Origin: a virus
IMG/VR virus record: IMGVR_UViG_3300011435_000008
Location: 1-44,465 of that record
Direction: 5' to 3' (one strand)
Length of the DNA: 44,465 nt
The notes beneath the pieces were generated by a model, which saw nothing but the letters and a program-made list of their open reading frames with translations, searched no databases and was not told where the DNA came from. Every line of letters starts with the position of its first letter. Positions within the stretch are counted from its first letter, which is position 1. A program made the position numbers and the translations under genes. Positions 225 through 43,649 of the stretch are shown piece after piece.

Positions 225-276
225 TTTGGTGGTTACGTTTCCGCTACCTATATTTGTGGAACAAAACACAAACAAA
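225..276 (+). promoter_or_regulatory. Promoter cassette copy 1: -33 TTTG (225-228), 20-nt spacer, -7 TATATTTG (249-256), conserved A-rich leader.
   Basis: TTTGGTGGTTACGTTTCCGCTACCTATATTTGTGGAACAAAACACAAACAAA followed by ATG at 277. Matches the Bacteroidota TTTG/TAnnTTTG promoter architecture. Confidence 0.8.
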
Positions 277-537
277 ATGACTTACACACTAAACGTAAAA
301 GAGACAGGAAACAAAAGCGCAAAATTTCATTATACCGTAACCGACGAAAACGGCGTGGTAATATCTGAGCGCAACAGTAATAGAGTATACGAGGCCTGCA
401 CCATTAACGGCGCGTACTACTTTGGCCGCCGCGACCTGGTAGGCAAAGGCGACCACGGCAAGACGTTAAAAATGAACTCGCACCAGCTGGCCGACGACCG
501 TATGGTGGGCTACGCTACAATAGCCTACAAAAAATAA
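277..537 (+). CDS. Hypothetical small early protein (86 aa); paralog of the junction-spanning gene.
   Basis: The ORF track starts at 226 (TTG), but that extension translates the promoter cassette. The ATG at 277 directly follows the conserved leader. Confidence 0.75.
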   Translation: MTYTLNVKETGNKSAKFHYTVTDENGVVISERNSNRVYEACTINGAYYFGRRDLVGKGDHGKTLKMNSHQLADDRMVGYATIAYKK

Positions 538-550
538 TCTTTCACCAGGT

Positions 551-574
551 CCAGGCCTCCAGGCCTGGGCCTTT
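551..574 (+). terminator. GC hairpin CCAGGCC-tcca-GGCCTGG with a weak T tract.
   Basis: 7-bp perfect stem 551-557/562-568, followed by gccttt. Confidence 0.4.
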
Positions 575-585
575 AACCAATATCT

Positions 586-804
586 ATGCTGGAAAAATTA
601 CTAGCTGAAAAAAAATCTTTGTACGTGGTGGCCCTGGAGTTAAATAGCGATATGACCAGGAAAATAACTAAGTTCCTTTTGACCCAGGAGGGCCGCCAGC
701 GTTTCCTCTACCGCCACCAGCATAAAATTAGAGTGCGGACCCTGGACGGGCTGCACCTGGACACACCAGCAAACCGTAAACGCTTAAGACGTAAAATTTA
801 TTAA
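586..804 (+). CDS. Hypothetical protein (72 aa).
   Basis: ATG ORF, tightly packed with its neighbours. No recognisable motif. Confidence 0.6.
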   Translation: MLEKLLAEKKSLYVVALELNSDMTRKITKFLLTQEGRQRFLYRHQHKIRVRTLDGLHLDTPANRKRLRRKIY

Positions 805-805
805 C

Positions 806-1159
806 ATGAATATAGAACTATTAGCAGGACCGCACGACCAGGTAACAGTAAGGCCCAGAGAGTTGGCCGTGGGCGACGTAATAACGGCCAGCTTTGGTAT
901 GCGCCGGGCCGTGGCAGGGCACCCTATTAGCGACGGTAGCAGCCACCTTTCCCCGATTAAGTACTGGCGCGTAATAGGTAAGTATTGCCGGGGCCGTAAG
1001 TGGTACATTAACATAAAGGCCGTAACGGTCCCCAGGGACCACCCGTACTATGGCCAGTACATTAACCAGGGCTGGAGCCTGGGCTACCAGATACAGGACA
1101 CCGAATTTTTAAGCATAGCCACGCCACGGTCGGCCTATAAAAAAATAGTTTTAAAATAA
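806..1159 (+). CDS. Hypothetical protein (117 aa).
   Basis: ATG 2 nt after the upstream stop. Ends just before cassette copy 2. Confidence 0.65.
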   Translation: MNIELLAGPHDQVTVRPRELAVGDVITASFGMRRAVAGHPISDGSSHLSPIKYWRVIGKYCRGRKWYINIKAVTVPRDHPYYGQYINQGWSLGYQIQDTEFLSIATPRSAYKKIVLK

Positions 1160-1160
1160 A

Positions 1161-1211
1161 TTTGGTGGTTACGTTTCCGCTACCTATATTTGTGGAACAA
1201 AAGCAAACAAT
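1161..1211 (+). promoter_or_regulatory. Promoter cassette copy 2 (-33 1161-1164, -7 1185-1192).
   Basis: TTTGGTGGTTACGTTTCCGCTACCTATATTTGTGGAACAAAAGCAAACAAT followed by ATG at 1212. Confidence 0.8.
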
Positions 1212-1376
1212 ATGACCGCAAATTTAGCCGCCGAAATAGCCGTACAAACCGTAATCCTGGACGCACTGGAGAAAGGGCACACCAACGTAAACGAAATGGT
1301 GGCCTACATGGAAACAAAAGTTTTTAACGACGCAGTAGCCCGCTACGTGCTGCTTTTAACCCAAACCTTTAACTAA
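1212..1376 (+). CDS. Hypothetical small protein (54 aa), below the ORF-track length cutoff.
   Basis: ATG sits exactly where the other cassette copies place their start. Translates MTANLAAEIAVQTVILDALEKGHTNVNEMVAYMETKVFNDAVARYVLLLTQTFN, stop TAA at 1374-1376. Confidence 0.6.
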   Translation: MTANLAAEIAVQTVILDALEKGHTNVNEMVAYMETKVFNDAVARYVLLLTQTFN

Positions 1377-1377
1377 T

Positions 1378-1584
1378 ATGGAAAACCAATACTTTTTCCA
1401 CTATCGCGACGTAAAGGTAACGGTAGAAAGGGTCCAGGAGGGCACAGACGCACCTACCTGGGACCTGGTAGTAGAAAACAAGGGCCGCGAACTTTACTGC
1501 GGCTTTGACTACCGCAGCCACCTGGAGGCCGAGGAAAGCGCCAGGACCTTTATAGACTCATACCTGGTATACCATTATTTATGA
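1378..1584 (+). CDS. Hypothetical protein (68 aa).
   Basis: ATG ORF 1 nt after the upstream stop. Confidence 0.6.
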   Translation: MENQYFFHYRDVKVTVERVQEGTDAPTWDLVVENKGRELYCGFDYRSHLEAEESARTFIDSYLVYHYL

Positions 1585-1871
1585 GAATGACTATTTACGC
1601 CAAAACCGAAATAAACCCAGGCCGGGGCCTACGCTCCTACACCAGAACCAGGCTGCGCGGCAGCGACGGCCAGCTATATTTCACCGACCAGGGCCTGGAG
1701 GAGTACACCAAAAGCCTGGACGAGTACGGGGCCATAAAGTTTACGCCTATACCCACCTACATAGGCCAGAGGCTAGAGGCCACCCGCTGGCACTCGCACA
1801 AAGTAAAGGGAGCAAATAAAATATTTCTAACGCACTTTAATTTGATACATGAGACCGACGCACAAAAATAA
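1581..1871 (+). CDS. Hypothetical protein (96 aa).
   Basis: ATGA overlap with the upstream stop. Confidence 0.6.
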   Translation: MRMTIYAKTEINPGRGLRSYTRTRLRGSDGQLYFTDQGLEEYTKSLDEYGAIKFTPIPTYIGQRLEATRWHSHKVKGANKIFLTHFNLIHETDAQK

Positions 1872-2796: not shown

Positions 2797-2844
2797 TTAG
2801 GTGGTTACGCTAGCGCAGCCTATATTTGTGGAAACACAAACAAA
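2797..2844 (+). promoter_or_regulatory. Promoter cassette copy 3, with a degenerate -33 (TTAG) and -7 at 2821-2828.
   Basis: TTAGGTGGTTACGCTAGCGCAGCCTATATTTGTGGAAACACAAACAAA followed by ATG at 2845. Confidence 0.7.
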
Positions 2845-3085: not shown

Positions 3086-3111
3086 AACCCGGCCACCAGG
3101 TCGGGTTTTTT
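3086..3111 (+). terminator. Intrinsic terminator.
   Basis: Stem CCCGGCC/GGTCGGG (one G-T pair), loop acca, then TTTTTT. Confidence 0.75.
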
Positions 3112-3380: not shown

Positions 3381-3419
3381 ATATTTTTTTACCTTAACTT
3401 CGCTGGCAAACTTTACCTT

Positions 3420-4670
3420 TTGTCCTGGTTTTCCAATTTATTTGGCACGGCATACTTAAAGGACAGCATGTACCACCAGTGGTACCCCTACCACGTTTTC
3501 GGTGCTGCTCCTCAGTTTAATGACTACCACCGAGACACCGAAAAGCTGGCCGCCATTTTCTCAAACCCGGCGCTACTCAAAATTTTTTCTATCCAGTGCG
3601 ACCTTTTCAGCCTGGCGCGTCCTTATGTGTATAAGAAAAACGGCAACACTGCCGACGAGGACCCAGCCCTGGACCGCCTGGCGCAGCCAAACCCGCTACA
3701 ATCTACGGCAGATTGGCTCTGGTGCTATATGTTCTATAAAATGCTGGGAAATGCCTACCTATACGTAGATAGCGACCTGGTGGAGCGTCCAAACGCGCCA
3801 ATGTACTGGCTGGAAAATCATAAAATAGAGTGGCCCCTGGAACTGGAAAAGCAAAAGGACAAACTTTTTTTATCTGAGTCAAAGTTAAACAAGGTCCTGG
3901 GCACCCAGTTATTCTACCGCTACGAGGACGGCACCCGGTTTGAGTTTCCGCTAAAGCAGCTGGTAATTATAACCGACCTGACCAACGGCACGGGCAACTG
4001 GTTTAAAGGGTTTTCCAAAATAGACGCACTTTACAAAGTTATTTCTAATAGCGAGGCCAGCCTGGACTCAAAAAATATTAACGTGCGCTACGCGGGTAAG
4101 TTCCTGGTAGCTGGTACCACGGACCCCAACGACGTTACCCGCAAAATTATGGGCGAGGACGAGAAAAAGGACATAGAGGAAAAGACCAACGGCCCTAAAC
4201 AGGTGCACGCCGTAAAAAGCATGGTAGACATAAAGCGTTTTGTGGACGACCTAAAGGTGCTGGAACTGGACCGCTCCTACCTGGCCGACTATTTCCTAAT
4301 CGGTAATATGTACGGCATACCCAGGGACATACTAGAAGCCTATCAATCAAGCACTTACGAGAACCAGGAAAAGGCCCAGGCGCGGCACGTGGCCTATACT
4401 ATGGAGCCAGCTGGCGAAATGCTGGGCGCTGCACTGGCTAAACGCTGGGGCTACGCTGACAAGGGCAAACGTATAGCCTTTGGCTGGGACCATTTACCGT
4501 TTACCCAGGTATTTGAGAAAGAGCGGGCAGCTATCCAGCAAACCAGGGTGCAGACCCTGGCAAACTTGTTAAAAATTGGCGTACCGATAGAGCAGATAAA
4601 CGCATTTTTAGACACTAATTTTACGATAAATGCACCAGAAACAGAGCCAGAAACAGCAGGAAACGACTAA
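3420..4670 (+). CDS. Portal protein (HK97-family-like).
   Basis: 416-aa ORF (TTG start in the track) immediately upstream of the protease and capsid genes. General resemblance to phage portal proteins, from memory. Confidence 0.75.
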   Translation: MSWFSNLFGTAYLKDSMYHQWYPYHVFGAAPQFNDYHRDTEKLAAIFSNPALLKIFSIQCDLFSLARPYVYKKNGNTADEDPALDRLAQPNPLQSTADWLWCYMFYKMLGNAYLYVDSDLVERPNAPMYWLENHKIEWPLELEKQKDKLFLSESKLNKVLGTQLFYRYEDGTRFEFPLKQLVIITDLTNGTGNWFKGFSKIDALYKVISNSEASLDSKNINVRYAGKFLVAGTTDPNDVTRKIMGEDEKKDIEEKTNGPKQVHAVKSMVDIKRFVDDLKVLELDRSYLADYFLIGNMYGIPRDILEAYQSSTYENQEKAQARHVAYTMEPAGEMLGAALAKRWGYADKGKRIAFGWDHLPFTQVFEKERAAIQQTRVQTLANLLKIGVPIEQINAFLDTNFTINAPETEPETAGND

Positions 4671-16459: not shown

Positions 16460-17914
16460 ATGGGTTTAGGATTCTTAAATATTTCGTCCAACTTTACTGG
16501 AGAGAGCCAGTTTATAGTCGTGGAGTGGGTCCGCTCCACCGCCCAGGGTACCCCAGTTATTGGCCACGTGGACGGCCAGGGGCTGGGCGCACAGGACGAC
16601 ACAAACCAGACCCAGATTTTTTATACTGCGCCGCACTCAAACCGGGCGCTGCAAGTTACGCAGCTGCCAGAGGTTTGGATGGTGGTAAGGTTTTGGCGGT
16701 CCTCGGACGGCGTGGCAAAGGACACGCTACTACTGGAACTAGCCGGAAACGCACGCACTGGGGCCTTGTACCCTTTAACCAGGTTTGAGTACGTGGTGGA
16801 CCGGGGCATGAGCGACGGGGACATTTGGGGCGACCCAGAGGACGGGGACCACGGGCTGCGCGACCAGCGCCTGGAGGGCGGGGAGTACTGGATAGAGGAG
16901 CGGGGCACGGGCACACTGCTAACCACCGAAATAGTGGACCGTTCGGACGTGGGCGGCGGGTTTGACTTTGCCGACCCGTTAAAAACCATGAACAGCGGCG
17001 CGGTTTACATAGCGTTTTTAATTACCCGCATGGACCTACCAGGGGAGGACAGCGGCAGCGCACCGCCGCCCGCTGAGGTAGTGGACGACATTTTTATACT
17101 GACCGTAAACCAGGACTATAACCCGGTTACTATGGGAGGTAAGACACTTATAGCCAACTACGCCGCGACCATAGGCACGTTATTTATACAGGACCTGGCC
17201 CTGGTGGCAGATAGTCGTTTTAAACTGCAAAGCCACTACGGGGCGCAGCGTAATGTAGTTATACAGTTCTCGGCTGGCAATACGATAAGGTTTTACGGCA
17301 CCGACGTAAACGCTATTGTCCTGGGAAACTACGAGGACATAGAGATATTATTTAAAACCGGGGTGGCCTACGTTATGCAGAGCCGCACGGCGCACGGCGA
17401 CCTTGCAAAACTGGTCTGGAGTTATAAGGACCAGGCCAACACGCTACCAGCCGACGGTGCGCTGCTATCAGAAGCTAGTTACCCCAGGGTGGTGCAGATA
17501 CTTGACAGCCTGCCAGCGTCCAGCGTGGTGGGGTCGGTGGCCTGGTCCACGTCGAGCGTGGCAGCCGACGGGCAGACCGTTTTTGCAAATAAGGGTAAAT
17601 GGATGCGAGAGGGCGGGAACTTTAGACCGCCAGACCTACGCACCAGGGTTATAAAAGCCTTATCTGCCCTGGACGGGTCGGTGGCAGCTGGGCGCTACGA
17701 GCACCAGGAAACTATGAGCCATGACCACTGGATGGCAAACGCCACCGACAACGGCGGCACGCCGTACCTGAGCACAAACCACAGCACGGGAGGAAATACT
17801 GGTTATGCCCTTAACGGGTCCAGCGTCCTGCCAGCGCAGTTTAAGACTGGACCCAGTGGTGGGTCAGCCAACATAGTTAATAATATCGGCTTATTACCAT
17901 TAATAAGTATATGA
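16460..17914 (+). CDS. Tail fibre protein with a phage tail-collar-like C-terminal region.
   Basis: The track starts at 16397, overlapping the previous gene; the ATG at 16460 (MGLGFLNISS...) follows the upstream stop. ...LPADGALLSEASYPRVVQIL...FRPPDLRTRVIKA...HQETMSHDHWM resembles the tail-collar signature (GWxxCDG...Y..L...FxLPDLRGRF). Confidence 0.6.
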   Translation: MGLGFLNISSNFTGESQFIVVEWVRSTAQGTPVIGHVDGQGLGAQDDTNQTQIFYTAPHSNRALQVTQLPEVWMVVRFWRSSDGVAKDTLLLELAGNARTGALYPLTRFEYVVDRGMSDGDIWGDPEDGDHGLRDQRLEGGEYWIEERGTGTLLTTEIVDRSDVGGGFDFADPLKTMNSGAVYIAFLITRMDLPGEDSGSAPPPAEVVDDIFILTVNQDYNPVTMGGKTLIANYAATIGTLFIQDLALVADSRFKLQSHYGAQRNVVIQFSAGNTIRFYGTDVNAIVLGNYEDIEILFKTGVAYVMQSRTAHGDLAKLVWSYKDQANTLPADGALLSEASYPRVVQILDSLPASSVVGSVAWSTSSVAADGQTVFANKGKWMREGGNFRPPDLRTRVIKALSALDGSVAAGRYEHQETMSHDHWMANATDNGGTPYLSTNHSTGGNTGYALNGSSVLPAQFKTGPSGGSANIVNNIGLLPLISI

Positions 17915-24271: not shown

Positions 24272-24499
24272 CTAGAGAGAACATATTTGATTTAATAATT
24301 GTTTACCTAACTGAGTTTCGAGTTTTTCGCGGTGGCCATTTTTTACCTGGTCCTTAATTTCCTTTACCACCTGTTTTACCAGGCCCGTTTCGCAGGCCTC
24401 CTGCCAGGCCTTAATCTGCACGGACTGGCTTTTTACTTGTTGCAGCTGGACCGATACGTGGAGCAGGCCTAAATATATTTGCATAGACGTTCTACCCAT
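24272..24499 (-). CDS. Hypothetical coiled-coil protein (75 aa, or shorter from the internal Met).
   Basis: One of only two convincing minus-strand ORFs. Overlaps the stop of the upstream HTH gene. Confidence 0.5.
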   Translation of the reverse strand: MGRTSMQIYLGLLHVSVQLQQVKSQSVQIKAWQEACETGLVKQVVKEIKDQVKNGHREKLETQLGKQLLNQICSL

Positions 24500-24674
24500 T
24501 TTTAGCGGTTAAAAATTCCTTTACTTTTTTCTCGTCTACGTGCAGCACGTGGGCACGGCCAAACTTTTTACGGGCAGTTACGCCGGGTAACTTGTGGCCC
24601 TTTATAATAGCTTTACGCACCGCTGCGTCGGAAATACCGCGCATGGCTGCGTATTGCTGGGTGGTTATTATCAT
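24492..24674 (-). CDS. Small helix-turn-helix DNA-binding protein (excisionase/MerR-like HTH); candidate transcriptional regulator.
   Basis: MIITTQQYAAMRGISDAAVRKAIIKGHKLPGV... is typical of short Xis/AlpA-type HTH proteins. Divergent from the replication operon. Confidence 0.55.
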   Translation of the reverse strand: MIITTQQYAAMRGISDAAVRKAIIKGHKLPGVTARKKFGRAHVLHVDEKKVKEFLTAKNG

Positions 24675-24745
24675 TTTTAAAGTATTTTGACAAATGTATA
24701 AATTAATTTTGGAAGTTACGCAAAAGTTTCTATTTTTGTTTTCTC
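24675..24745 (-). promoter_or_regulatory. Minus-strand promoter for the HTH gene, overlapping the plus-strand promoter.
   Basis: The minus strand reads ...TTTTGcgtaacttccaaaattaatttaTACATTTGtcaaaatactttaaaaATG. The -7 TAcaTTTG is perfect; the -33 spacing (about 22 nt) is slightly long. Confidence 0.5.
24708..24738 (+). promoter_or_regulatory. Plus-strand promoter (variant of the cassette) for the replication operon.
   Basis: TTTG(24708-24711)-gaagttacgcaaaagtttc-TATTTTTG(24731-24738), 19-nt spacer. GAAGTTACGC echoes the cassette GGTGGTTACGC. A direct repeat aaacgcta x2 follows. Confidence 0.6.
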
Positions 24746-24819
24746 AAACGCTAAAACGCTAAACGATGGACGAAACCCACCTTTACCTTTTCAGCGCATT
24801 TTTTAAACTTAATAATTAA

Positions 24820-26926: not shown

Positions 26927-26953
26927 GGGCTGCGTTTCTACGCGGCCCTTTTT
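26927..26953 (+). terminator. Intrinsic terminator (CGTTTCTAC-loop family).
   Basis: GGGCTGCG-tttcta-CGCGGCCC (one G-T pair) followed by TTTTT. Confidence 0.8.
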
Positions 26954-26955: not shown

Positions 26956-26964
26956 TGTGGATAA
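26956..26964 (-). promoter_or_regulatory. Perfect DnaA-box 9-mer (TGTGGATAA, the reverse complement of TTATCCACA).
   Basis: Read directly. Part of the 14-nt string AATGTGGATAACTT, which recurs at 35463-35476. Confidence 0.55.
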
Positions 26965-26970
26965 CTTATA

Positions 26971-27021
26971 TTTGGTGGTTACGTGCGCGTAGCCTATATT
27001 TGTAAGACAAAAGCAAACAAC
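26971..27021 (+). promoter_or_regulatory. Promoter cassette copy 4 (-33 26971-26974, -7 26995-27002).
   Basis: TTTGGTGGTTACGTGCGCGTAGCCTATATTTGTAAGACAAAAGCAAACAAC followed by ATG at 27022. Confidence 0.8.
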
Positions 27022-27195
27022 ATGAACCTCCCAAAAAACATAGCCAGCCAAACGACCTACGAAAACGGAGTTATTTTAATTGTAGCCTACGCGCAAAAGA
27101 AAGGAGGCCGTGCACCTTATCCAGTTATCTGGGGCTACGTTTTCAACGGCGTTAAATACACCTCTAAAAAGAAAGCCGACGAGGCGGCAAAATAA
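27022..27195 (+). CDS. Hypothetical small protein (57 aa).
   Basis: ATG follows the cassette leader. The track's 26983 start translates the cassette itself. Confidence 0.65.
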   Translation: MNLPKNIASQTTYENGVILIVAYAQKKGGRAPYPVIWGYVFNGVKYTSKKKADEAAK

Positions 27196-27196
27196 A

Positions 27197-27247
27197 TTTG
27201 GTGGTTACGCTGGAGTAACCTATATTTACACTTCAAACGACAACATT
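27197..27247 (+). promoter_or_regulatory. Promoter cassette copy 5 (-33 27197-27200; -7 TATATTTA at 27221-27228).
   Basis: TTTGGTGGTTACGCTGGAGTAACCTATATTTACACTTCAAACGACAACATT followed by ATG at 27248. Confidence 0.7.
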
Positions 27248-27736: not shown

Positions 27737-29676
27737 CTTTATCAATAGACATAGAAACCTACTCTAGTACGGACCTGGTAAAAACAAACGTCTATAAGTA
27801 CGTCGAGGCGGAGGACTTCGACGTGCTGCTTATAGGGTTAAGGTACGACGACGGCCCGGTGCGGGTAATAGACACGCACGACAAAACGCCACTGCTAGGC
27901 CTGCGCCAGCTAATGGCCGACCTGGTGGACCCGACGGTGGTTAAAACGGCTTACAATGCGCAGTTTGAAATAGTGTGCTTATCGCGGTATTTTAACCTGG
28001 TGCTGGACCCGGCCCAGTGGCGCTGCACGATGGCCGGAGCCGCTCGGCTGGGCCTGCCCTTTGGCCTGGACAAGGTGGCCGAGGTGCTGGGCCTGGGAAC
28101 AAAAAAGGACACACGAGGCCGTGCCCTTATTAAATACTTTTCCGTACCTTGTAAACCCACCGCTATTAATGGTGGACGGGTGCGAAATTTACCCCACCAC
28201 GCGCCCGACAAATGGGACCAGTTTATAGAGTACTGCCGCAAGGACGTAGAGGTAGAGACGGCAATAAAAAAAATAATTTCGTTTTACGACGTGCCCGGCT
28301 TTGAGCGGCCAATGTTTGCCCTGGACCAGGCCATTAACTCGCGTGGCGTCCTGGTGGACCTGGTGCTGGTGCGTGCGGCCATTAAAATTAACGACGCCTA
28401 TACGGAGCGCATGATAGCCGAGGCGGTCAAAATAACAGGCCTGGCAAACCCTAATAGCGTGGCCCAGCTGCGCGGGTGGCTGGAACGCCAGACCGGGGAC
28501 CAGGTGGAGGACCTTAGAAAGGAAAACATACCCGCCATGATTGCGGCAGCTGGAGAGTGGAACGTGCGGCGGGTCCTGCAAATACGGCAACTGATTAGTA
28601 AAAGCAGTATTAAAAAATATTATGCCATGCTAAACGGTGCAAGTGCAGACGGTCGCGTGCGTGGACTGTTTCAATACTACGGTGCCAACCGTACGGGCCG
28701 CTGGGCGGGCCGACAGGTCCAAATGCAAAATTTAATTAAGAACTCTATGCCAGACCTCGACCTGGCCCGCGCACTGGTACGGGCAGGCGACCTGGACACG
28801 CTGGAGTTAGTCTACGGCAGCGTGCCTGGCGTACTTTCCCAACTTATACGCACGGCCTTTGTGCCCTCGGAGGGTAAGGTGCTGCTCGTCTCGGACTTTT
28901 CCGCCATAGAGGCCAGGGTAATAGCCTGGCTGGCCGGGGAGGAGTGGCGGCTGGGCGTATTTAGGGGCGGCGGTAAAATATACGAGGCCTCAGCGGCTAC
29001 TATGTTTTTTGTGCCGCTGGAGGAGGTAACCAGGGAAATGAGGGCAAAGGGTAAAATAGCAGAACTGGCTTTAGGGTACCAGGGCGGCGTCGGTGCCCTG
29101 CTTAAAATGGGTGCCCTGGCTATGGGCCTGGTCGAGGACGAACTGCCGGGAATAGTAGAGCGGTGGCGGTCGGCAAATAAACGGATAGTGGGCCTATGGC
29201 AGCGGGCCGAGAACGCCGCACGGTCGGCAGTGGCAGACCCTGGGCGGGTGGTGGTTTGTGGCCGGGTGGCGTACCAGGTGCGGCAGGATATACTATTTTG
29301 CAGGCTGCCCAGTGGTCGAGAGTTAGCGTACATGCGCCCACGGGTGGAGGCGGGTAAGTTTGGCTATGCCCAGGTAACGTATGAGGGTATGAACCAGACG
29401 ACCAAAAAGTGGGGAAGGTCGGCGGCCTATGGTGGTCTACTGGTCGAGAACATGACCCAGGCCATAGCCCGCGACATACTGGCCGAGAAAATAAAAATTT
29501 GTGAGGCTGCGGACTTATTCGTAACTTTTCACGTGCACGACGAAATAGTGGTAGAGGCCCCCAAAAATTTCAATCTTAACATAATGGACGAAATAATGGC
29601 CAGGCCCGTACCCTGGGCCGAGGGCCTACCCCTGGCAGCTGAGAGTTTTAAAACTAACTACTACAAAAAAGACTAA
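27733..29676 (+). CDS. polA: Family A DNA polymerase with a 3'-5' exonuclease domain.
   Basis: ExoI SIDIETYS; YYGANRTGRWAGRQVQMQNL; motif A LLVSDFSAIEARV; motif B KGKIAELALGYQGG; motif C FHVHDEIVVE. Confidence 0.93.
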   Translation: MTLSIDIETYSSTDLVKTNVYKYVEAEDFDVLLIGLRYDDGPVRVIDTHDKTPLLGLRQLMADLVDPTVVKTAYNAQFEIVCLSRYFNLVLDPAQWRCTMAGAARLGLPFGLDKVAEVLGLGTKKDTRGRALIKYFSVPCKPTAINGGRVRNLPHHAPDKWDQFIEYCRKDVEVETAIKKIISFYDVPGFERPMFALDQAINSRGVLVDLVLVRAAIKINDAYTERMIAEAVKITGLANPNSVAQLRGWLERQTGDQVEDLRKENIPAMIAAAGEWNVRRVLQIRQLISKSSIKKYYAMLNGASADGRVRGLFQYYGANRTGRWAGRQVQMQNLIKNSMPDLDLARALVRAGDLDTLELVYGSVPGVLSQLIRTAFVPSEGKVLLVSDFSAIEARVIAWLAGEEWRLGVFRGGGKIYEASAATMFFVPLEEVTREMRAKGKIAELALGYQGGVGALLKMGALAMGLVEDELPGIVERWRSANKRIVGLWQRAENAARSAVADPGRVVVCGRVAYQVRQDILFCRLPSGRELAYMRPRVEAGKFGYAQVTYEGMNQTTKKWGRSAAYGGLLVENMTQAIARDILAEKIKICEAADLFVTFHVHDEIVVEAPKNFNLNIMDEIMARPVPWAEGLPLAAESFKTNYYKKD

Positions 29677-30188
29677 TGAATTTTAAAGATTTAACCGGGC
29701 TGGAGTTTGGCCGCCTAAAAGTTATTAAGCGTGTAGAGAACTCTAAAAACGGCCACTCGAAATGGCAATGCTTATGTAAATGCGGAAAAATTACGGTCGT
29801 TTTTGGCAGCAATTTAAAGAGGGGCCATACTACCAGCTGCGAGTGCCTAAACGATGAGGTAATAGAAAAACACGGCCTTTGGGGTACGTCTACGTATAAC
29901 ACCTGGCACGGCATGGTAGGCCGCTGCACGCACCAAAAAAACAAAAGGTATAAATATTATGGTGGGCGTGGTATAACGGTAGACCCAAACTGGTTAAACT
30001 TTAAAAATTTTCTAAATGATATGGGAGTACGACCCGCAAAGCATTTGACCCTCGATAGAATAAATAACGACCTGGGTTATTTTAAAGCAAATTGTAGGTG
30101 GGCGACCTGGGAGGAGCAACGAGCAAACCAGCGGCCCAGAACTAAATTAGAAAAACCGGGGTCTGTACCCTATGTTTATGAAAAATAA
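29676..30188 (+). CDS. HNH-like (homing-type) endonuclease.
   Basis: GRLKVIKR, WQCLCKCG...TSCEC, YYGGRGITV, and LTLDRINNDLGYFKANCRWAT. This is the free-standing phage family usually annotated HNH/AP2-like. TAATG overlap with polA. Confidence 0.55.
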   Translation: MNFKDLTGLEFGRLKVIKRVENSKNGHSKWQCLCKCGKITVVFGSNLKRGHTTSCECLNDEVIEKHGLWGTSTYNTWHGMVGRCTHQKNKRYKYYGGRGITVDPNWLNFKNFLNDMGVRPAKHLTLDRINNDLGYFKANCRWATWEEQRANQRPRTKLEKPGSVPYVYEK

Positions 30189-33589: not shown

Positions 33590-34904
33590 GCATATTATTG
33601 ATAACCCGGCAGCGGGTTTGTTCCTGAGCATGGGTACCGGGAAAACGGCAGCCACTTTAAAGGCCCTGGACCAGCTGCTAAATGAAACCTTTGAAATTAC
33701 CCGCGTGCTGGTAATAGCGCCCAAATTTGTGGCCCGTACGGTCTGGACGGCTGAGATAGCCAAGTGGTACCCGCACCTTAAGGCCTCGGTGGTCCTGGGC
33801 ACGGCACGCCAGAGGGCTGACGCACTACGCAAAAAGGCTGATATTTATATTATAAACCGGGAAAACGTGGACTGGCTGGTAAGTTTTTACGGCGCACGCT
33901 GGGACTTTGATATGGTTATCATAGACGAGTTAAGCAGCTTTAAGAGTGCCAGCGCCAGGCGGTTTAGGGCACTGCGCACGGTGCGGCCCTTAATTAAGCG
34001 TATAGTGGGTCTTACTGGTACGCCAGCGCCTAACGGCGTTTCAGACCTATGGCCGCAGCTTTACCTGTTGGACCAGGGCAAAAGGTTAGGTAAGACCTTA
34101 ACGGCCTTTAGAGAGGCTTATTTAACCCCAGATAAGCGCGACGCCTTTAGAGTTTTCAGCTATAAACCAAGAGAGGGGGCCGAAGCAGTGATTTATAAGA
34201 AAATAGCAGATATTTGTATAAGCATGAAAGCAGCCGATTATTTACAGCTACCTGGACGCATAGAGCACGAGGTGGTAATAGACCTGGAGCCAGAGACGCT
34301 GGCCGGGTATGAAAGTTTTGAACGCGACCAGGTAATGGCCCTGGAGGGTCAGGATATAACGGCGTTAAATGCTGGAGTATTAGCGGGCAAATTATTACAG
34401 TACAGTAATGGCGCGGTTTACGACGCTGAGCGCACGGTGCACAAGGTACACGACCAAAAGCTGGAGGCCCTGGAGGAACTAGTAGAGGAGGCCAGCGGCA
34501 ACCAGGTACTAATATTTTATAATTTTTTGCATGACCGCGACCGCATACTGGAGCGCCTGCCAGGGGCCAGACAGTTAAAAACCGCCCAGGATATAATAGA
34601 CTGGAACGCCGGAAAGGTAGGCGTTATGGTAGCGCACCCTGCCAGTGCAGGGCACGGGCTAAACCTCCAGGCTGGTGGTAATATCATTATATGGTTTGGG
34701 CTGCCCTGGAGCCTGGAACTATACGAACAGGCCAACGCCAGACTAGACAGACAGGGCCAGACCAGGCCCGTAGTTATTTTTAAATTGCTCTCAGGTGGTA
34801 CCCTGGACCAGTCGGTGGCCTCTGTCCTGGAAAGGAAAGCAGGCGGCCAGGCGGCACTACTTGAAGCAGTAAAAGCTAAAATTTATGAGTACAAACGGGC
34901 ATAA
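33528..34904 (+). CDS. SNF2/DEAD-like superfamily 2 helicase.
   Basis: Walker A LSMGTGKT, DExx IIDELSSF, C-terminal HPASAGHGLNLQ. Alternative start at 33555 (MRLHPYQ). Confidence 0.9.
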   Translation: MSRTLETYYMRLHPYQVQACKHIIDNPAAGLFLSMGTGKTAATLKALDQLLNETFEITRVLVIAPKFVARTVWTAEIAKWYPHLKASVVLGTARQRADALRKKADIYIINRENVDWLVSFYGARWDFDMVIIDELSSFKSASARRFRALRTVRPLIKRIVGLTGTPAPNGVSDLWPQLYLLDQGKRLGKTLTAFREAYLTPDKRDAFRVFSYKPREGAEAVIYKKIADICISMKAADYLQLPGRIEHEVVIDLEPETLAGYESFERDQVMALEGQDITALNAGVLAGKLLQYSNGAVYDAERTVHKVHDQKLEALEELVEEASGNQVLIFYNFLHDRDRILERLPGARQLKTAQDIIDWNAGKVGVMVAHPASAGHGLNLQAGGNIIIWFGLPWSLELYEQANARLDRQGQTRPVVIFKLLSGGTLDQSVASVLERKAGGQAALLEAVKAKIYEYKRA

Positions 34905-35463
34905 AGTTTTGGAGCAGGCTAAACTAACGCCAAAGCTGGAAAACTTTTGCCGCGAGTACCTGGTGGACTTTAACGCAACTCAGGCCGCTATTAGAGCGGG
35001 GTATAGCCGGGCTAGTGCGCACGTGCAGGCATTTGACCACTTAAAGAAACCTAGAGTTATTTCCAGGATAGCCGAGTTAAGGGCTGCGACGGCCAAAGAG
35101 TACAACATAACAAAGGAAAAGTTAATGCGTAACCTAATGGAAATAGCTGGCACCAGGCTGGAGGACATAACGGACCCAGTAACGGGTGCGGTGCTGCCGA
35201 TGCACGACTGGCCCGAACACATGAAGGGCACCGTTTCAGGTATTGACCTGGAAGAAATACGCGAGGGCCGGGGCAAAACCCGGCGCGTGGTCGGCTATAA
35301 TAAAAAAGTACGCCTTTGGGAAAAGACCAAAGCTATTGAGGTCCTCAACAAAATGCTAGGCTTTAACGCACCTGAAAAGGTCGCGCCAGTTACCCCAGAC
35401 GGCGAAGCCCTGGCCCCAGTCATTAACATTATAACCATAATGCCTAAGCAGGAAGATTTCTAA
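34885..35463 (+). CDS. terS: Terminase small subunit (Terminase_2-like).
   Basis: LTPKLENFCREYLVDFNATQAAIRAGYSRASAHVQAFDHLKKPRV matches the N-terminal HTH signature of this family. Confidence 0.8.
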   Translation: MSTNGHKVLEQAKLTPKLENFCREYLVDFNATQAAIRAGYSRASAHVQAFDHLKKPRVISRIAELRAATAKEYNITKEKLMRNLMEIAGTRLEDITDPVTGAVLPMHDWPEHMKGTVSGIDLEEIREGRGKTRRVVGYNKKVRLWEKTKAIEVLNKMLGFNAPEKVAPVTPDGEALAPVINIITIMPKQEDF

Positions 35464-35464: not shown

Positions 35465-35473
35465 TGTGGATAA
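35465..35473 (-). promoter_or_regulatory. Perfect DnaA-box 9-mer (TGTGGATAA).
   Basis: Read directly. Same AATGTGGATAACTT context as at 26954-26967, immediately upstream of cassette copy 6. Confidence 0.55.
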
Positions 35474-35479: not shown

Positions 35480-35530
35480 TTTGGTGGTTACGCTAGCGTG
35501 CCCTATATTTGTGGAACAAAAGCAGAAAAT
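35480..35530 (+). promoter_or_regulatory. Promoter cassette copy 6 (-33 35480-35483, -7 35504-35511).
   Basis: TTTGGTGGTTACGCTAGCGTGCCCTATATTTGTGGAACAAAAGCAGAAAAT followed by ATG at 35531. Confidence 0.8.
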
Positions 35531-35719: not shown

Positions 35720-35865
35720 AAGCTGAAAAACTAGCCAGGTGCCGCGCCTATGCCCAGGCGCACCCTGGAGCCAAAGGTATTGAGGTGGCAAAGGCCATGA
35801 AAGTTTCCACCTACTTTGTAGAAAAGAACTGGTACGAAATATTTTTAGCCTGGAAAATAAAATAA
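35716..35865 (+). CDS. Hypothetical small protein (49 aa), possibly HTH-like.
   Basis: ATGA overlap with the upstream gene. Translates MKAEKLARCRAYAQAHPGAKGIEVAKAMKVSTYFVEKNWYEIFLAWKIK and ends right before cassette copy 7. Confidence 0.5.
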   Translation: MKAEKLARCRAYAQAHPGAKGIEVAKAMKVSTYFVEKNWYEIFLAWKIK

Positions 35866-35866
35866 A

Positions 35867-35917
35867 TTTGGTGGTTACGTACCCGCAACCTATATTTGTG
35901 GAACAAAAGCAGAAAAT
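35867..35917 (+). promoter_or_regulatory. Promoter cassette copy 7 (-33 35867-35870, -7 35891-35898).
   Basis: TTTGGTGGTTACGTACCCGCAACCTATATTTGTGGAACAAAAGCAGAAAAT followed by ATG at 35918. Confidence 0.8.
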
Positions 35918-36211: not shown

Positions 36212-36448
36212 ATGACCCTGAAAGCTAAGAAAGCCAACGCCACCAAACTAGTAAACAAGGCCCGCACTACCCTGGGCTACGACATTCTCGACGCCATAGA
36301 CCTGACCCTGGGCAATATACACTACCAGATACCAGAGCAGCGGGCCTGGTTTGAGACGCTTATAACTGCGCGCCTGGCAGACAGCATAAACCATTTAAAT
36401 TTTTTCGAGGACCAGAGAAAAAAACTTTTGGTAGTTACCGCGGGGTAA
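36212..36448 (+). CDS. Hypothetical protein (78 aa).
   Basis: ATG ORF. Confidence 0.6.
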   Translation: MTLKAKKANATKLVNKARTTLGYDILDAIDLTLGNIHYQIPEQRAWFETLITARLADSINHLNFFEDQRKKLLVVTAG

Positions 36449-36518
36449 CTATCTTTACGGGGTCCAGGTAAGTGGACGCAAAACGGGGCCAAACCATACC
36501 ATTATAGCCTTAACCTTT

Positions 36519-36578
36519 TTGCCGCTGGATATTGCGGCACCTCTTACCAGGTGCCAATATTGAAGGCGGCAATTTTTT
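36519..36578 (+). terminator. Long, imperfect ~20-bp hairpin followed by T6. Terminator or regulatory structure ahead of the glycan cassette.
   Basis: The outer TTGCCGC/GCGGCAA, middle ATATT/AATAT and inner GGCACCT/AGGTGCC segments pair around the loop cttacc, followed by TTTTTT. Confidence 0.7.
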
Positions 36579-36582
36579 ATTT

Positions 36583-39951: not shown

Positions 39952-40595
39952 GGCTAGTAATACCGTACAGGCTGGCCGGGGACGGCCTGGAGTTAAAGTA
40001 CGCTATACGCTCTATGGTCCGCCATTTTAACGCACTTACCGGGGTGCTACTGATAGGCGACCGCCCAGAGTGGTACGACGGGGACCATATAGCCAGGGCG
40101 GACTTCGAGGGCGAGAAAGAGAAAAGTATGCAGATAAAGGTAATGGCCTGCCAGGACCCGGTTTTTTTATACTCTAACGACGACTACTACGCACTGGAGG
40201 ACTTTGGCATAGACCTACCTAACTACCACGACACGACATGCGAGGACCTGGCAGTGCGCCACCAGCGTAAAGATTATAGGCGCATGTATGAAAACTGCGG
40301 CCCTGGGTGGCTAAATTATGATATTCATGTACCAATGATTATGCGCCGCGACCGTTTCCTGGCTACCTTTGAGGCTATGGACGGACAGACACCAATAAAA
40401 ACCACCTACGCAAATGGACTGGTCCCTGGGCCGTACCTGGCCGACTGTAAAGTGCGGGGGGAGCACAACCTGGGCGAACTGGAGGACCTGGTGAAAGATA
40501 GGCCGTTTTTTTCCACCCACGAGAGCGTTATAAACCACGACTTTTTGTATTTTATAAATAAACTCTACCCCAATGCAAGTAAATGGGAACGCTGA
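39948..40595 (+). CDS. Stealth-CR2-like putative sugar(-phosphate) transferase.
   Basis: ELKYAIRSMVRHFNALTGVLLIGDRPEWY resembles the Stealth CR2 block (ELRYSLRS...P.W). Also has YSNDDYY and DIHVP. Weak call, from memory only. Confidence 0.35.
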   Translation: MRLVIPYRLAGDGLELKYAIRSMVRHFNALTGVLLIGDRPEWYDGDHIARADFEGEKEKSMQIKVMACQDPVFLYSNDDYYALEDFGIDLPNYHDTTCEDLAVRHQRKDYRRMYENCGPGWLNYDIHVPMIMRRDRFLATFEAMDGQTPIKTTYANGLVPGPYLADCKVRGEHNLGELEDLVKDRPFFSTHESVINHDFLYFINKLYPNASKWER

Positions 40596-41979
40596 GGAGA
40601 GGCCCGTAATAGAAATGCGCGTTACCAGTGTATTTAACCGTAACTGGGACGCCGTGCACGCCGTAAATCCAGACGGCACCAGGCGGTATAAGTACATAGT
40701 AAATAAAGGGTCCAGCCGCTCGTCTAAAACCTACTCGTTAATAGATTGTTTTGATACCCTGGCACGCAAAGAGAAAAATAAACGCTTTACTATCTGGCGC
40801 GATACAAAAGTGGATTGTGTAGATACGGTCTGGAACGACCTGGAAAAGCGTTTAATGGCTACGGGCCGCTGGCAGTTCCAGAATAAATTTAACGCCACAA
40901 AGACCTACCTACGCTACGCTACCGGGTCCAGGGTGGAGACGCACGGGGCCGACGACAGCGTGAGCGTGCACGGGCTGAACCAGAACGCGGCCTGGTTAAA
41001 TGAGCCATACAAAATAAGTAAGGACGTTTTCGACCAGATAGACCAGCGTACAGAGGACTTTATTTTTATAGACTGGAACCCACGCCAGGCGCACTGGGTA
41101 GAGGACCTGGAGAGAGACGAGCGCACCATAGTTATAAACTCGACCTTTAGGGACAATCCATTTTGCCCAGAGGCCCAGCGGGAGAAAATCCTAAGCTACC
41201 AGACCATAAAGGACAGCCACGCAGTGCTCCACAAGTTACTAACGCCTGGGGAGGCTGAGACGTACAGCTGCGTAGCAAACCCAAAGGGCCTGGCGGGTAA
41301 GTATACCACCGAACTGGCACGCTGTCAAAATAACGAGTATAAACGCAGCGCAAACGCCTATAATTGGAGCGTCTACGGCCTGGGCCTGAGAGCCGAAAAG
41401 CCAAACCGTATTTTTTCCTGGTCTGAAATTTCCCTGGCTGAGTACCTGGCCCTGGACGTGCCACTTTATTACGGGTGCGACTGGGGAATTTGCGACCCCT
41501 GGGCTATTAGTGAGGTGAAGTACTACGACGGTGGTCTGTACGTCAGAGAACTTAATTATAGCAGCGAAAACACGCTGCGCGATAAAATGACCTTAACGGA
41601 CCGGGAGCAGATACTGGGGGCCGAGGAGGGTATAGTAAACTGGCTCTTTAGCCACCTGGCGGTCCCTTTCACCAGTGAAATTATTTGCGACCCAAACCGA
41701 CGGCTTAAAATACTGGCGCTGCGCCAGGCTGGCTGGGAGTACGCCATAGCTGCCCCAAAGCCTCCAGGGTCCATAATAGACGGCATTAGCCTGCTATCTA
41801 ATCTAAGGGTATACTTTACCGCTGACAGCGTAAACGTGCGCCAGGAGCAGGAGAATTACAGCCGCAAGGTGGACCGCTACGGCATAGTGCTGGAGGAGCC
41901 AGAGGACCTGGACAACCATCACATGGACGCCGTACGCTACGTGGCCACGTATCTGCAAACCCAGGGCGTTATAAAATAG
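40573..41979 (+). CDS. terL: Terminase large subunit.
   Basis: Walker-A-like NKGSSRSSKT near the N-terminus; the C-terminal acidic block LDNHHMDAVRYV is typical of the terminase nuclease domain. Alternative start at 40615. Confidence 0.85.
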   Translation: MQVNGNAEERPVIEMRVTSVFNRNWDAVHAVNPDGTRRYKYIVNKGSSRSSKTYSLIDCFDTLARKEKNKRFTIWRDTKVDCVDTVWNDLEKRLMATGRWQFQNKFNATKTYLRYATGSRVETHGADDSVSVHGLNQNAAWLNEPYKISKDVFDQIDQRTEDFIFIDWNPRQAHWVEDLERDERTIVINSTFRDNPFCPEAQREKILSYQTIKDSHAVLHKLLTPGEAETYSCVANPKGLAGKYTTELARCQNNEYKRSANAYNWSVYGLGLRAEKPNRIFSWSEISLAEYLALDVPLYYGCDWGICDPWAISEVKYYDGGLYVRELNYSSENTLRDKMTLTDREQILGAEEGIVNWLFSHLAVPFTSEIICDPNRRLKILALRQAGWEYAIAAPKPPGSIIDGISLLSNLRVYFTADSVNVRQEQENYSRKVDRYGIVLEEPEDLDNHHMDAVRYVATYLQTQGVIK

Positions 41980-42002
41980 TGTTGCTTTTTCTTACTTTCC
42001 AC

Positions 42003-42217: not shown

Positions 42218-42253
42218 GTATGGTAACAACTAGAGCCTTTTTATTTAACTCTA

Positions 42254-42285
42254 GGGCCGGACGTTTCCACGTTTGGCCCTTTTTT
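42254..42285 (+). terminator. Intrinsic terminator-like hairpin.
   Basis: GGGCC-ggacgtttccacgttt-GGCCC followed by T6. Confidence 0.65.
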
Positions 42286-42333
42286 ATTATATTTAAATCC
42301 TAGTTTTTCAGAGGGTATACGGATAAAGAAATT

Positions 42334-42363
42334 ACCGGGTATTTTTATGCCTGGTTTTTTTTT
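42334..42363 (+). terminator. Hairpin plus a long T-run immediately before cassette copy 8.
   Basis: ACCGGG-tatttttatg-CCTGGT (one G-T pair) followed by T9. Confidence 0.55.
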
Positions 42364-42370
42364 ATTTTTA

Positions 42371-42406
42371 TTTGGTGGTTACGATACCGCACCCTATATT
42401 TGCACC
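42371..42406 (+). promoter_or_regulatory. Promoter cassette copy 8, short-leader form (-33 42371-42374, -7 42395-42402, ATG 4 nt later).
   Basis: TTTGGTGGTTACGATACCGCACCCTATATTTGCACC followed by ATG at 42407. Confidence 0.75.
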
Positions 42407-42790
42407 ATGACAAACAACTGGACCCAGCCCTACAAACCCAGCACCCGCGCCCTGGTAACGACTAAGCTAGTGCCCTTTATCTGCACTGGCGGCAACGTCT
42501 ACACTATTAAAAACGCGGTTACTGCCCGCTCGTTTACTTACAAGGCCGTAGCGCCAAAGGACGGCCAGACGGACATAGTATTTATACACGCCTTATTTGG
42601 TCCAGCCATAGGCCGCGGCCAGTTTAATTATATCGGCTTTGTCCGTGGTGGCCAGTTCTACTGGGGCGGTGCTAAAGCTGCGGCCAGCCAGGACGACCTT
42701 AAGGTGGTAGCCTGGGCGCACGTTTTTAACCAGCTTATGGACGGTAAGCAGCACCCGGCGCTGGAAATTTGGAACGAGTACGGGAAGTAA
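42407..42790 (+). CDS. Hypothetical early protein (127 aa).
   Basis: ATG after the cassette. The track start 42347 translates the T-run and the cassette. Confidence 0.7.
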   Translation: MTNNWTQPYKPSTRALVTTKLVPFICTGGNVYTIKNAVTARSFTYKAVAPKDGQTDIVFIHALFGPAIGRGQFNYIGFVRGGQFYWGGAKAAASQDDLKVVAWAHVFNQLMDGKQHPALEIWNEYGK

Positions 42791-42843
42791 CCAGAATAAC
42801 CATAACGCCACCAAAAAATAACTTTGTATTTTTAAAGTTTTAT

Positions 42844-42894
42844 TTTGGTGGTTACGATACCGCACCCGATATTTGCAATCTAAACAACAAACAA
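42844..42894 (+). promoter_or_regulatory. Promoter cassette copy 9 (-33 42844-42847; -7 GATATTTG at 42868-42875).
   Basis: TTTGGTGGTTACGATACCGCACCCGATATTTGCAATCTAAACAACAAACAA followed by ATG at 42895. Confidence 0.7.
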
Positions 42895-43197
42895 ATGAAT
42901 TTAGCAGTAGCTACCGAAATCTTAAACCAGCTGGGTGGTAAAATGTTTATCTTAATGACTGGCAGTAAGAACTTTACCAGCGATAAGTGCGCCCTATCTT
43001 TCCACCTGGCTAAAAATGCCAGCCGCGCAAAATATTGCCGTATTGAGTTAATGCCTAACGACACCTATACCGTAACTTTCCTGGCCAGGGCTGACAAAAA
43101 TTTTAATTTCGCTGAGGTCGCAAAATTTGAGGGCGCATACTGCGACCAGCTGCAAAATATTTTTTCTGGCGTAACAGGCCTCTATACTAAACTTTAA
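42895..43197 (+). CDS. Hypothetical early protein (100 aa).
   Basis: ATG after the cassette leader (MNLAVATEILNQLGGKMFILMTGSKNF...). Confidence 0.7.
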   Translation: MNLAVATEILNQLGGKMFILMTGSKNFTSDKCALSFHLAKNASRAKYCRIELMPNDTYTVTFLARADKNFNFAEVAKFEGAYCDQLQNIFSGVTGLYTKL

Positions 43198-43203
43198 TAA
43201 ATT

Positions 43204-43446
43204 ATGAACTTTTCAGACCGCATTTGCATTAGATACCGCCTTTTTAGTAATAACTGGGAAATTAAACTTTGCCAGGAGGGCCTCGGTTTTGCCGTGCTCC
43301 TGGCCCAGGACGGGAACCAGACCACTAAACGCTTTTACGTTAGCCTGGAGGAGGCGGACCGCTACTACGCTAAGGTTTGCCGGGTCCTGGCCCAGGCGGC
43401 GGACCGCGCCATTTTTGCCTCCACCGCTAAATATAATACGAAATGA
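43204..43446 (+). CDS. Hypothetical protein (80 aa).
   Basis: ATG ORF. Confidence 0.6.
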   Translation: MNFSDRICIRYRLFSNNWEIKLCQEGLGFAVLLAQDGNQTTKRFYVSLEEADRYYAKVCRVLAQAADRAIFASTAKYNTK

Positions 43447-43649
43447 AAAAAAGCTATACCATGCGCATAAATGAGGAGGTCCTGGCCCAGCTGGAGGTCG
43501 AGGCCGTGCGCCAGAACCGTACCGTAGCTAACCTGGTGGACACTATCCTAAAAAAATATTTTGCCGAAAATTTGGTGGTTACGTTACCGCAACCTATATT
43601 TGTGGAACAAAAGCAAACAAATGAAAAAAATCACCCGCACCACAGTTAA
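43443..43649 (+). CDS. Ribbon-helix-helix (CopG/Arc-like) DNA-binding protein whose 3' end runs through promoter cassette copy 10.
   Basis: MRINEEVLAQLEVEAVRQNRTVANLVDTILKKYF has the strand-helix-helix pattern of RHH repressors. The C-terminal LVVTLPQPIFVEQKQTN is the translated cassette. Confidence 0.5.
   Translation: MKKSYTMRINEEVLAQLEVEAVRQNRTVANLVDTILKKYFAENLVVTLPQPIFVEQKQTNEKNHPHHS
43571..43620 (+). promoter_or_regulatory. Promoter cassette copy 10 (-33 43571-43574, -7 43595-43602), embedded in the 3' end of the RHH ORF.
   Basis: TTTGGTGGTTACGTTACCGCAACCTATATTTGTGGAACAAAAGCAAACAA followed by ATG at 43621. Confidence 0.8.

Follow-up and report, generated by a model that had tools for sequence, protein, structure and literature searches.

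The phage genome of IMG/VR record IMGVR_UViG_3300011435_000008 (here W; the window is the whole 44,465-nt stretch that was analysed) carries ten copies of a repeat of about 50 nt, each of which joins a putative promoter to a short leader that in most copies runs up to a start codon. Bases 1-123 are the same as bases 44343-44465, so the window represents a complete circular assembly (44,342 bp, 50% G+C), and an identical genome (100%) was found in several samples. The phage is siphovirus-like and has nearly all of its genes on the + strand: a structural module (portal 3468, capsid 5606, tape measure 10482 and tail proteins), a replication module (exonuclease 25182, gp2.5-like single-stranded DNA-binding protein (SSB) 26354, PolA 27733, HNH 29676, primase-helicase 30310 and SNF2 helicase 33528) and a packaging module (TerS 34885, TerL 40573). 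Searches of the window turned up no gene for an RNA polymerase, sigma factor, integrase or tRNA, the phage looks virulent, and a megablast search with the whole window against GenBank phages gave no match. Its closest distinct relative, R, was reassembled from the database loci L088, L104 and L093 (L-numbers designate database loci). R is syntenic with W, has about 12 cassettes and shares amino-acid identities of 70% for PolA, 83% for portal and 77% for TerL (40-90% per protein overall).

The cassettes follow a common plan. From 5′ to 3′ there is an A/T-rich upstream stretch, often holding the stop codon of the preceding gene; a -33 element in which TTTG is extended by GTGGTTACG; a G+C-rich spacer ending in CC; and a -7 box, TATATTTG, after which the leader begins. 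The extended -33 element is the 13-mer TTTGGTGGTTACG, full copies of which start on the + strand at 225, 1161, 2797, 26971, 27197, 35480, 35867, 42371, 42844 and 43571. With up to two mismatches allowed there are 12 matches in the window, all on the + strand, where 1.98 are expected, and none of 100 shuffles reaches 12. A first-pass annotation of this DNA had given the ten positions exactly, except that the copy at 2797 begins with TTAG rather than TTTG; the looser copy that it reported at 24708 is also present, and a second, at 36427, had been overlooked. The 20-nt distance that it gave from TTTG to the TA of the -7 box is exact in all ten. The repeated string recurs at the ten sites as described, only its N10 gap was wrong (the correct form is the 13-mer, N9, CC and TATATTTG), and the copies are near-identical in the promoter half as claimed, not in all leaders (61-81% identity to a reference copy over 67-77 nt). 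The -7 box is TATATTTG in eight of the ten, TATATTTA at 27197 and GATATTTG at 42844. It is also correct that the cassettes avoid the structural operon: zero copies lie between 3468 and 24220, the structural module. Six are packed into one 4.8-kb block of small genes that runs from 42371 across the window junction to 2797; of the other four, two stand before the PolA operon and two after TerS. Genes in these zones mostly have no functional annotation (PHROGs, Pfam), the exceptions being an Arc-like ribbon-helix-helix (RHH) protein (43443-43649) and the replication enzymes downstream of 27197.

This geometry is that of a Bacteroidota housekeeping promoter, the architecture to which the cassettes had first been assigned. 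Published Bacteroidota sigma-A promoters combine a -33 TTTG and a -7 TAnnTTTG at a spacing of 19-21 nt (PMC6847099; PMC7366714), and in Flavobacterium johnsoniae the -7 element reads T-12 A-11 .. T-8 T-7 T-6 G-5, with G avoided at the two middle positions (PMC6847099). The spacing here is 20 nt in the ten full copies and 19 nt at 24708 and 36427, and the cassette -7 boxes have no G at the nn positions. Compared with the sigma-ABfr promoters, the two elements, the 19-21-nt spacing, the missing G and the expected start 5 nt after the final G are all alike. There are two differences: the published -33 is weak, whereas here it is extended by the invariant GTGGTTACG, and the spacer (GTGGTTACG followed by N4 and CGYNNCC) has a CGY core and terminal CC and is G+C-rich, not A/T-rich as in sigma-A promoters. 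The cassettes are likely to be compact expression units in which a promoter of the Bacteroidota housekeeping-sigma type, used by the host RNA polymerase, is joined to a leader without a Shine-Dalgarno sequence. Host RNA polymerase with its housekeeping sigma factor would read the extended -33 and the -7 box, transcription would start 5 nt after the G of the -7 box, and the short, unstructured A/C-rich leader would put adenines at the positions that favour initiation in this phylum. In a phage that has no polymerase or sigma factor of its own, cassettes of this kind could switch on the replication operon and the small early genes.

The leaders are consistent with such a unit. In the register of the F. 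johnsoniae study (start 5 nt after the -7 G; PMC6847099), the predicted transcription start lies 12-16 nt 5′ of the ATG in nine copies, and the transcript from 42371 is predicted to be leaderless, starting on the A of its ATG. The full leader GTGGAACAAAAGCAAACAA (up to three mismatches) is found in only five copies; two (225 and 2797) have indel variants of it, and the remaining three (27197, 42371 and 42844) carry leaders of other kinds. Three leader types, A (GTGGAACAAAAGCAAACAAT), B (TTCTAAACAACAAACAA) and C (ACACTTCAAACGACAA), are common to W and R and stand at non-orthologous sites. The main leader, ACAAAAGCAAACAAT-ATG, has A at -3, -6, -12 and -13, where adenine favours initiation in the F. 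johnsoniae study (PMC6847099); types B and C have C at -3. The leaders are A/C-rich, unstructured and free of Shine-Dalgarno sequences, and the first 45 nt of the predicted transcripts have a minimum free energy of about 0 kcal/mol (vs -8.45 for random 45-mers of the genome). They fit the shared translation-initiation leader that the first-pass annotation had suggested, and they resemble the Kozak-like initiation regions of Bacteroidota, which are adenine-rich, little structured and without a Shine-Dalgarno sequence (PMC6847099). What sets the cassettes apart is a 5′ untranslated region of only 12-16 nt that is nearly fixed in sequence, with one copy predicted to have none.

A Bacteroidota host, at first deduced from the promoter, is backed by three signals that do not involve the cassettes. 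First, only 2 of 63 genes are preceded by a Shine-Dalgarno-like 4-mer, where about 10 are expected. Second, the genome-wide start context has hardly any G between -14 and -1 and shows maxima of A at -3, -6 and -11 to -13. Third, three proteins of the tail/structural region (17911-19629, 19626-21371 and 21378-21974) carry signal peptides ending in SA|Q, unusual for virion-module proteins; Bacteroidetes signal peptides follow a Q-rule (PMC5837995). The cassettes also bear on gene starts. Seven open reading frames (ORFs) of the mechanical ORF list (226, 26983, 27110, 35477, 42347, 42769 and 43561) run through a cassette, as had been pointed out, and VVTFPLPIFVEQ is the translation of cassette 225. 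The seven start-codon corrections proposed on that ground stand up: the distance from box to ATG is fixed, and the R orthologues begin at the same ATG. Gene callers that read through such cassettes would produce wrong N-termini in Bacteroidota phages, and the cassette provides a start rule for relatives.

Conservation of the -33 extension goes further than W. Among 20 aligned W and R copies, the 13-mer is unaltered in 17 and the -7 box is retained, while the neighbouring 10-nt spacer varies freely; R spacers differ from those of W, being ATCCCGCAAC or N5-GGATCC. Constancy of the 13-mer next to differing spacers points to purifying selection on it. The distant relatives L108, L109 and L095 (PolA 57%) have TTTGGAAGT(A/T)(A/G)CG-NTAG-CGTTACC-TATCTTTG, and no comparable repeat family was found in about 75 other PolA-related loci. 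Recurrence outside the clade was sought in IMG/VR viral stretches with patterns in the correct register. The 13-mer with N11 and TANNTTTG was found in 17 stretches, five from R and 12 from about eight unrelated contigs. Two controls gave zero: a same-composition shuffle of the 9-nt extension at the same spacing, and the true 13-mer at an N14 register. The GGAAG variant TTTGGAAGTTACG with N11 and TANNTTTG gave eight more, again unrelated. The unrelated contigs with the 13-mer have 30-50% G+C, come from gut and environmental samples and have no protein in common with W or R; one has a gene at 81% identity to cultured Flavobacterium phages. Most of the unrelated matches are promoter-like (A/T-rich upstream, A-rich leader, small ORF), and the group L130/L134/L138 may sit in coding sequence. 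Two matches to an N12-spaced pattern in metagenomes, L084 and L087, look like promoters as well. The cultured Flavobacterium phage mumin6-1 is without the exact 13-mer and has only TTTGGTAGTATC, at one promoter; a position-frequency survey of the -33 extension across other loci comprised 12 promoters only, too few for use; and a literature search for the 10-mer returned only unrelated primers.

The first-pass annotation had recommended a search of other phages for the cassette, and the 13-mer with its -7 box does recur in IMG/VR contigs. That result overturns the idea that the extra conservation is a private phage signature, since the same 13-mer stands in the same register in unrelated viral contigs. 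Since unrelated phages carry the extension at one fixed register, it is probably read by conserved host machinery, and it would then form part of a very strong promoter served by the conserved transcription apparatus of the host. This raises the question of whether Bacteroidota RNA polymerase reads more than TTTG and TAnnTTTG. A tentative answer, which we hold to be possible but doubtful, is that GTTACG (about -29 to -24, in TTTG-G-NN-GTTACG-N11-TAnnTTTG) is an undescribed third core-promoter element of Bacteroidota, recognised at a constant register by the sigma-A holoenzyme or by a host factor common to the phylum; phages would build “super-promoters” on it, and this clade would have made it half an operator. 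A testable hypothesis of an undescribed promoter element is the main value of the analysis.

The suggestion of an operator comes from the spacer. In W and R it goes on with N4-CGYAAC-C, which gives a clade-specific, imperfect dyad, GTTACG-N4-CGYAAC. Complementarity is 4.1 of 6 positions in register, against 0.2-1.75 with the right half slid, and the dyad of the more distant L109 is perfect (GTAACG-TTAG-CGTTAC). The cassettes could then be a factor-dependent promoter class, in which a phage protein on the dyad represses or activates all of them jointly, along the lines of a Cro/Cox-like or MerR-like switch or of MotA/AsiA. The candidate factors are a 60-amino-acid winged-helix protein (24492..24674, - strand) and, in W, the RHH protein, which is Arc-like. 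The winged-helix protein is predicted to bind DNA and is conserved in W, R, L106, L108 and L109; its gene is present in all relatives that carry GTTAC-type dyads. The gene is divergent from the 24708 promoter, and its own promoter (24675..24724, - strand; -7 box TACATTTG at 24691-24698, ATG at 24674) uses the same GTTACG box as that promoter. The protein is modelled as a beta-alpha-alpha-beta-beta-alpha winged helix (predicted local distance difference test score, pLDDT, 85), and the best Foldseek matches of the model, all weak (E at least 0.07), are ArsR/SmtB repressors, P2 Cox, RdfS excisionase, BldC and MerR-type proteins.

Several observations pull the other way. Unrelated phages with no protein in common with W or R have the invariant left half of the dyad, and the right half is missing both from them and from three R cassettes (the GGATCC type). 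R retains the 13-mer but has no homologue of the RHH protein at 43443, which makes that protein a poor candidate for the general cassette factor that it had been proposed to be. No window ORF has a PHROG or Pfam match to MotA/AsiA, and with consensus -33 and -7 elements at optimal spacing an activator is unneeded. T4 middle promoters, in which a MotA box at -30 stands in for the -35 element and, with a host -10, serves sigma appropriation by a phage without its own polymerase, are like the cassettes in having a conserved extra box near -30 next to a host -10-type element. They are unlike them in that the cassettes retain TTTG, that no MotA/AsiA was found and that the box also occurs in unrelated phages. 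Joint control by such a factor is less likely than not, and it can coexist with the host-promoter reading. The dyad may be an operator for the conserved 60-amino-acid winged-helix protein; as a third layer on the host promoter, binding to CGYAAC plus GTTACG would be the weakest step of the scheme, and an extra clade-specific regulator of the cassettes is conceivable rather than likely.

Other known sequence classes were tried and set aside. The GG-N10-GC register of a sigma-54 promoter can be read in some copies, but the CGT and GGATCC copies do not agree with it, and neither do the unrelated phages. An extracytoplasmic-function (ECF) promoter built on the leader GGAAC would have no conserved -10 element after it. 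An RNA hairpin or terminator made from the dyad was rejected because the invariant left half leaves no covariation, and terminator-like calls inside the cassettes are weak. Repressor operators of a temperate phage were rejected as well, with no integrase or partition genes found in the window. Short conserved repeats in one orientation are known from mycobacteriophages: the start-associated sequences of Cluster K lie at a fixed distance from start codons and overlap Shine-Dalgarno sites, and the stoperators of Cluster A are bound by the phage repressor and lie mostly outside promoters. The likeness to the cassettes ends there, as sequence, host and logic all differ.

The cassettes have a second property, which the first-pass annotation missed in an account that was otherwise right about promoter and leader: they mark gene-shuffling boundaries. 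L113, whose DNA is 90% identical to that of W, carries a single hybrid cassette in place of the cassette, 57-amino-acid gene and second cassette of W. The hybrid consists of the upstream part and leader of 26971 joined at the ATG to the gene after 27197, and the stretch from the 57-amino-acid gene (27022-27195) to the ATG behind the 27197 cassette is missing. In R, the cassettes at 26189 and 26480 (R-assembly coordinates) are identical through promoter and leader to the ATG and flank a gene missing from W, one cassette is inverted along with its gene, and the locus of cassette 225 has a single paralogue copy and no cassette. Genes without an R homologue make up 11 of 23 in cassette zones vs 7 of 37 elsewhere (Fisher p = 0.023), and cassette-zone genes that have one are more diverged (mean identity 56% vs 72% elsewhere). 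Neighbouring cassettes also share private variants (225 with 1161, 42371 with 42844, 35480 with 35867, and R26189 = R26480). These genome comparisons show genes gained, lost and swapped at cassette boundaries. Being long and alike, the copies act as recombination substrates. W and R were assembled from the same samples (L110/L090 from ENA ERZ27267681, L112/L091 from SRR6448217, L111/L001 from JGI 3300011416), the shared samples being of sediment or soil type, which makes co-infection and cassette-mediated exchange between them plausible.

Repeated early-promoter cassettes that mediate gene shuffling are of a kind already known. The PeSL cassettes of T4-type phages are repeated early promoters with a stem-loop, and indels and replacements end at them (PMC2839356; PMC4122927). 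The W repeats likewise are predicted to be strong host-sigma early promoters, repeated among small genes of unassigned function in plastic regions, with indel and replacement end-points at the cassettes. They differ in promoter type, phage lineage and host phylum and include a translation leader up to the ATG, and the stem-loop terminator is integral to PeSL, whereas here terminators stand beside some copies only. It could be argued that the W repeats are primarily mobile terminator-promoter units of this kind, whose main role is to move genes by recombination: indels and replacements are bounded by cassettes, an R cassette has been inverted together with its gene, and intrinsic terminators lie directly upstream of 26971 and 42371. 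We consider this rather unlikely. The terminator-like hairpins are outside the repeated sequence and directly upstream of only two of the ten cassettes, the 13-mer is kept in single-copy promoters of other phages, so that a transcription function would come first, and recombination is the by-product to be expected of repeats this long and similar. For the host-promoter reading, the parallel extends cassette-mediated gene shuffling from T4-type coliphages to another phage type and host phylum.

Shuffling also offers a way to dismiss the extra conservation as non-functional: if the copies were young duplicates or had been homogenised by gene conversion, only TTTG and TAnnTTTG would matter. The private variants of adjacent cassettes and the shared samples of W and R, which make exchange possible, agree with this. 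The explanation is nonetheless improbable, as GTGGTTACG is constant in 17 of 20 W and R copies beside a freely varying spacer in genomes whose proteins are 40-90% identical, and the 13-mer stands at the same register in unrelated contigs with both controls at zero. That the repeats are promoters for a phage-encoded polymerase or sigma factor, replication iterons or packaging signals is barely credible: uniform repeats are typical of single-subunit polymerase promoters and of iterons, but no polymerase or sigma gene was found in the window, the repeats hold host-type -33 and -7 elements, and they are dispersed rather than tandem, at a fixed distance from the ATG and all along the gene direction.

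Several points weigh against the cassettes being strong host promoters with an extended -33. The promoter activity, the start sites and the timing are predictions from the DNA. The spacer is G+C-rich and published Bacteroidota spacers are A/T-rich (PMC7366714; PMC6847099). The recurrence of the GTTACG extension comes from a scan of viral contigs, and the cassette copies are paralogues, so that counts over copies are not independent. For the operator layer, the left half of the dyad is equally well explained by a general -33 extension, the right half is missing from the three R cassettes and the unrelated phages, and the winged-helix model has only the weak matches given above. New features of the host-promoter reading are the Bacteroidota architecture, the fusion of a promoter to a fixed mini-leader and an invariant -33 extension that is also found in unrelated phages. 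As an expression part the cassette has a parallel in PBfP1E6, a Bacteroides fragilis phage promoter that is used with its native ribosome-binding site as a strong constitutive part and drives expression to very high levels in various Bacteroides species (PMC11554821, citing Whitaker et al. 2017). Both would be phage-derived promoters with their own ribosome-binding leader; PBfP1E6 is known as a single part, and the cassettes form a repeated family. The 50-nt cassettes are natural candidates for strong, portable promoter-plus-leader parts, which are scarce for Bacteroidota.

The individual cassettes, all on the + strand, differ in detail. Cassette 225..276 has TTTG at 225-228, its -7 box (TATATTTG) at 249-256, a predicted start at 261 and a 16-nt leader to the ATG at 277, and it lies between two paralogous genes. 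An 85-amino-acid ORF across the window junction (44298-44342 plus 1-213) is a paralogue, at 40% identity, of the gene at 277-537 behind this cassette; 44298-213 and 277-537 form a tandem duplicate pair with cassette 225 in between. Cassette 1161..1211 has its -7 box at 1185-1192, a predicted start at 1197 and a 15-nt leader to the ATG at 1212. Cassette 2797..2844, with TTAG for TTTG, has its -7 box at 2821-2828, a predicted start at 2833 and a 12-nt leader to the ATG at 2845; a single gene follows, and then a strong intrinsic terminator (3086..3107, + strand) that separates this cassette from the portal/structural operon and is kept in R. Cassette 26971..27021 (-7 box 26995-27002, predicted start 27007, ATG 27022) is preceded by a terminator at 26927-26948 and a DnaA box at 26956-26964. 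At the head of the PolA / primase-helicase operon is cassette 27197..27247 (-7 box TATATTTA at 27221-27228, type-C leader, ATG 27248).

After TerS, cassette 35480..35530 (-7 box 35504-35511, ATG 35531) has a perfect DnaA box 6 nt upstream (35465-35473), and cassette 35867..35917 has its -7 box at 35891-35898 and its ATG at 35918. Cassette 42371..42406, whose predicted start at 42407 is the A of the ATG, follows directly on a terminator at 42334-42355. Cassette 42844..42894 has the -7 box GATATTTG and a type-B leader, CTAAACAACAAACAA, the main leader type of R, with the ATG at 42895. Cassette 43571..43620 (-7 box 43595-43602, 14-nt leader, ATG 43621) lies within the final part of the RHH ORF (43443-43649), whose 3′ end overlaps it. 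The looser promoter at 24708..24765 (+ strand), which has an orthologue in R, combines TTTGGAAGTTACG, a 19-nt spacer, a -7 box at 24731-24738 (TATTTTTG) and a 23-nt leader, and it heads the exonuclease/SSB unit. The first ATG after it opens only a 17-codon mini-ORF (24766-24819), ahead of a 121-amino-acid gene; R has a 63-amino-acid gene there. The other looser promoter, 36427..36457 (+ strand), reads TTTGGTAGTTACC-N-GGTAAC-TATCTTTA. In five promoters the -33 TTTG doubles as the end of a second -7-like box (TAAATTTG, TATATTTG or TAATTTTG; 1157-1164, 26967-26974, 27193-27200, 35863-35870 and 24704-24711), and the -33 and -7 regions are themselves alike (TAAATTTGGTGG vs TATATTTGTGGA). Promoters with such an overlapping box may have tandem start sites.

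Other features of the genome adjoin the cassettes. The perfect DnaA boxes (TTATCCACA) at 26956-26964 and 35465-35473, on the minus strand, are the only two in the genome, and each ends 6 nt upstream of a cassette TTTG (26971, 35480). The arrangement is kept in R (as an inverted pair, ATCCACAAAATGTGGATAAC), L108 and L109, which suggests that host DnaA could control these two promoters or that an origin is linked to transcription. The stretch upstream of the portal gene (3381-3467) lacks a TAnnTTTG box and has TTATTYGGCACSGCRTAYTTA in common with R; another kind of promoter or leader may serve the structural (late) operon. A gene for an HNH homing-type endonuclease (29676-30188) stands between PolA and primase-helicase and is absent from R and L113. 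TerS (34885-35463) and TerL (40573-41979) are about 5 kb apart, with cassette-driven small genes and a glycosyltransferase/methyltransferase cluster between them. Rfam and tRNA searches of the window found nothing, which includes a conserved, structured non-coding stretch of about 125 nt behind the 36427 promoter (36460-36582; L088 18865-19010 in R; L108 18440-18544). As it lies just before the glycosyltransferase-like gene at 36583, this stretch may form a structured leader or a small RNA. It folds into two hairpins with covarying stems, whose loops, GGUAAG and CUUACC, are perfectly complementary, so that a kissing-loop interaction between them is possible.

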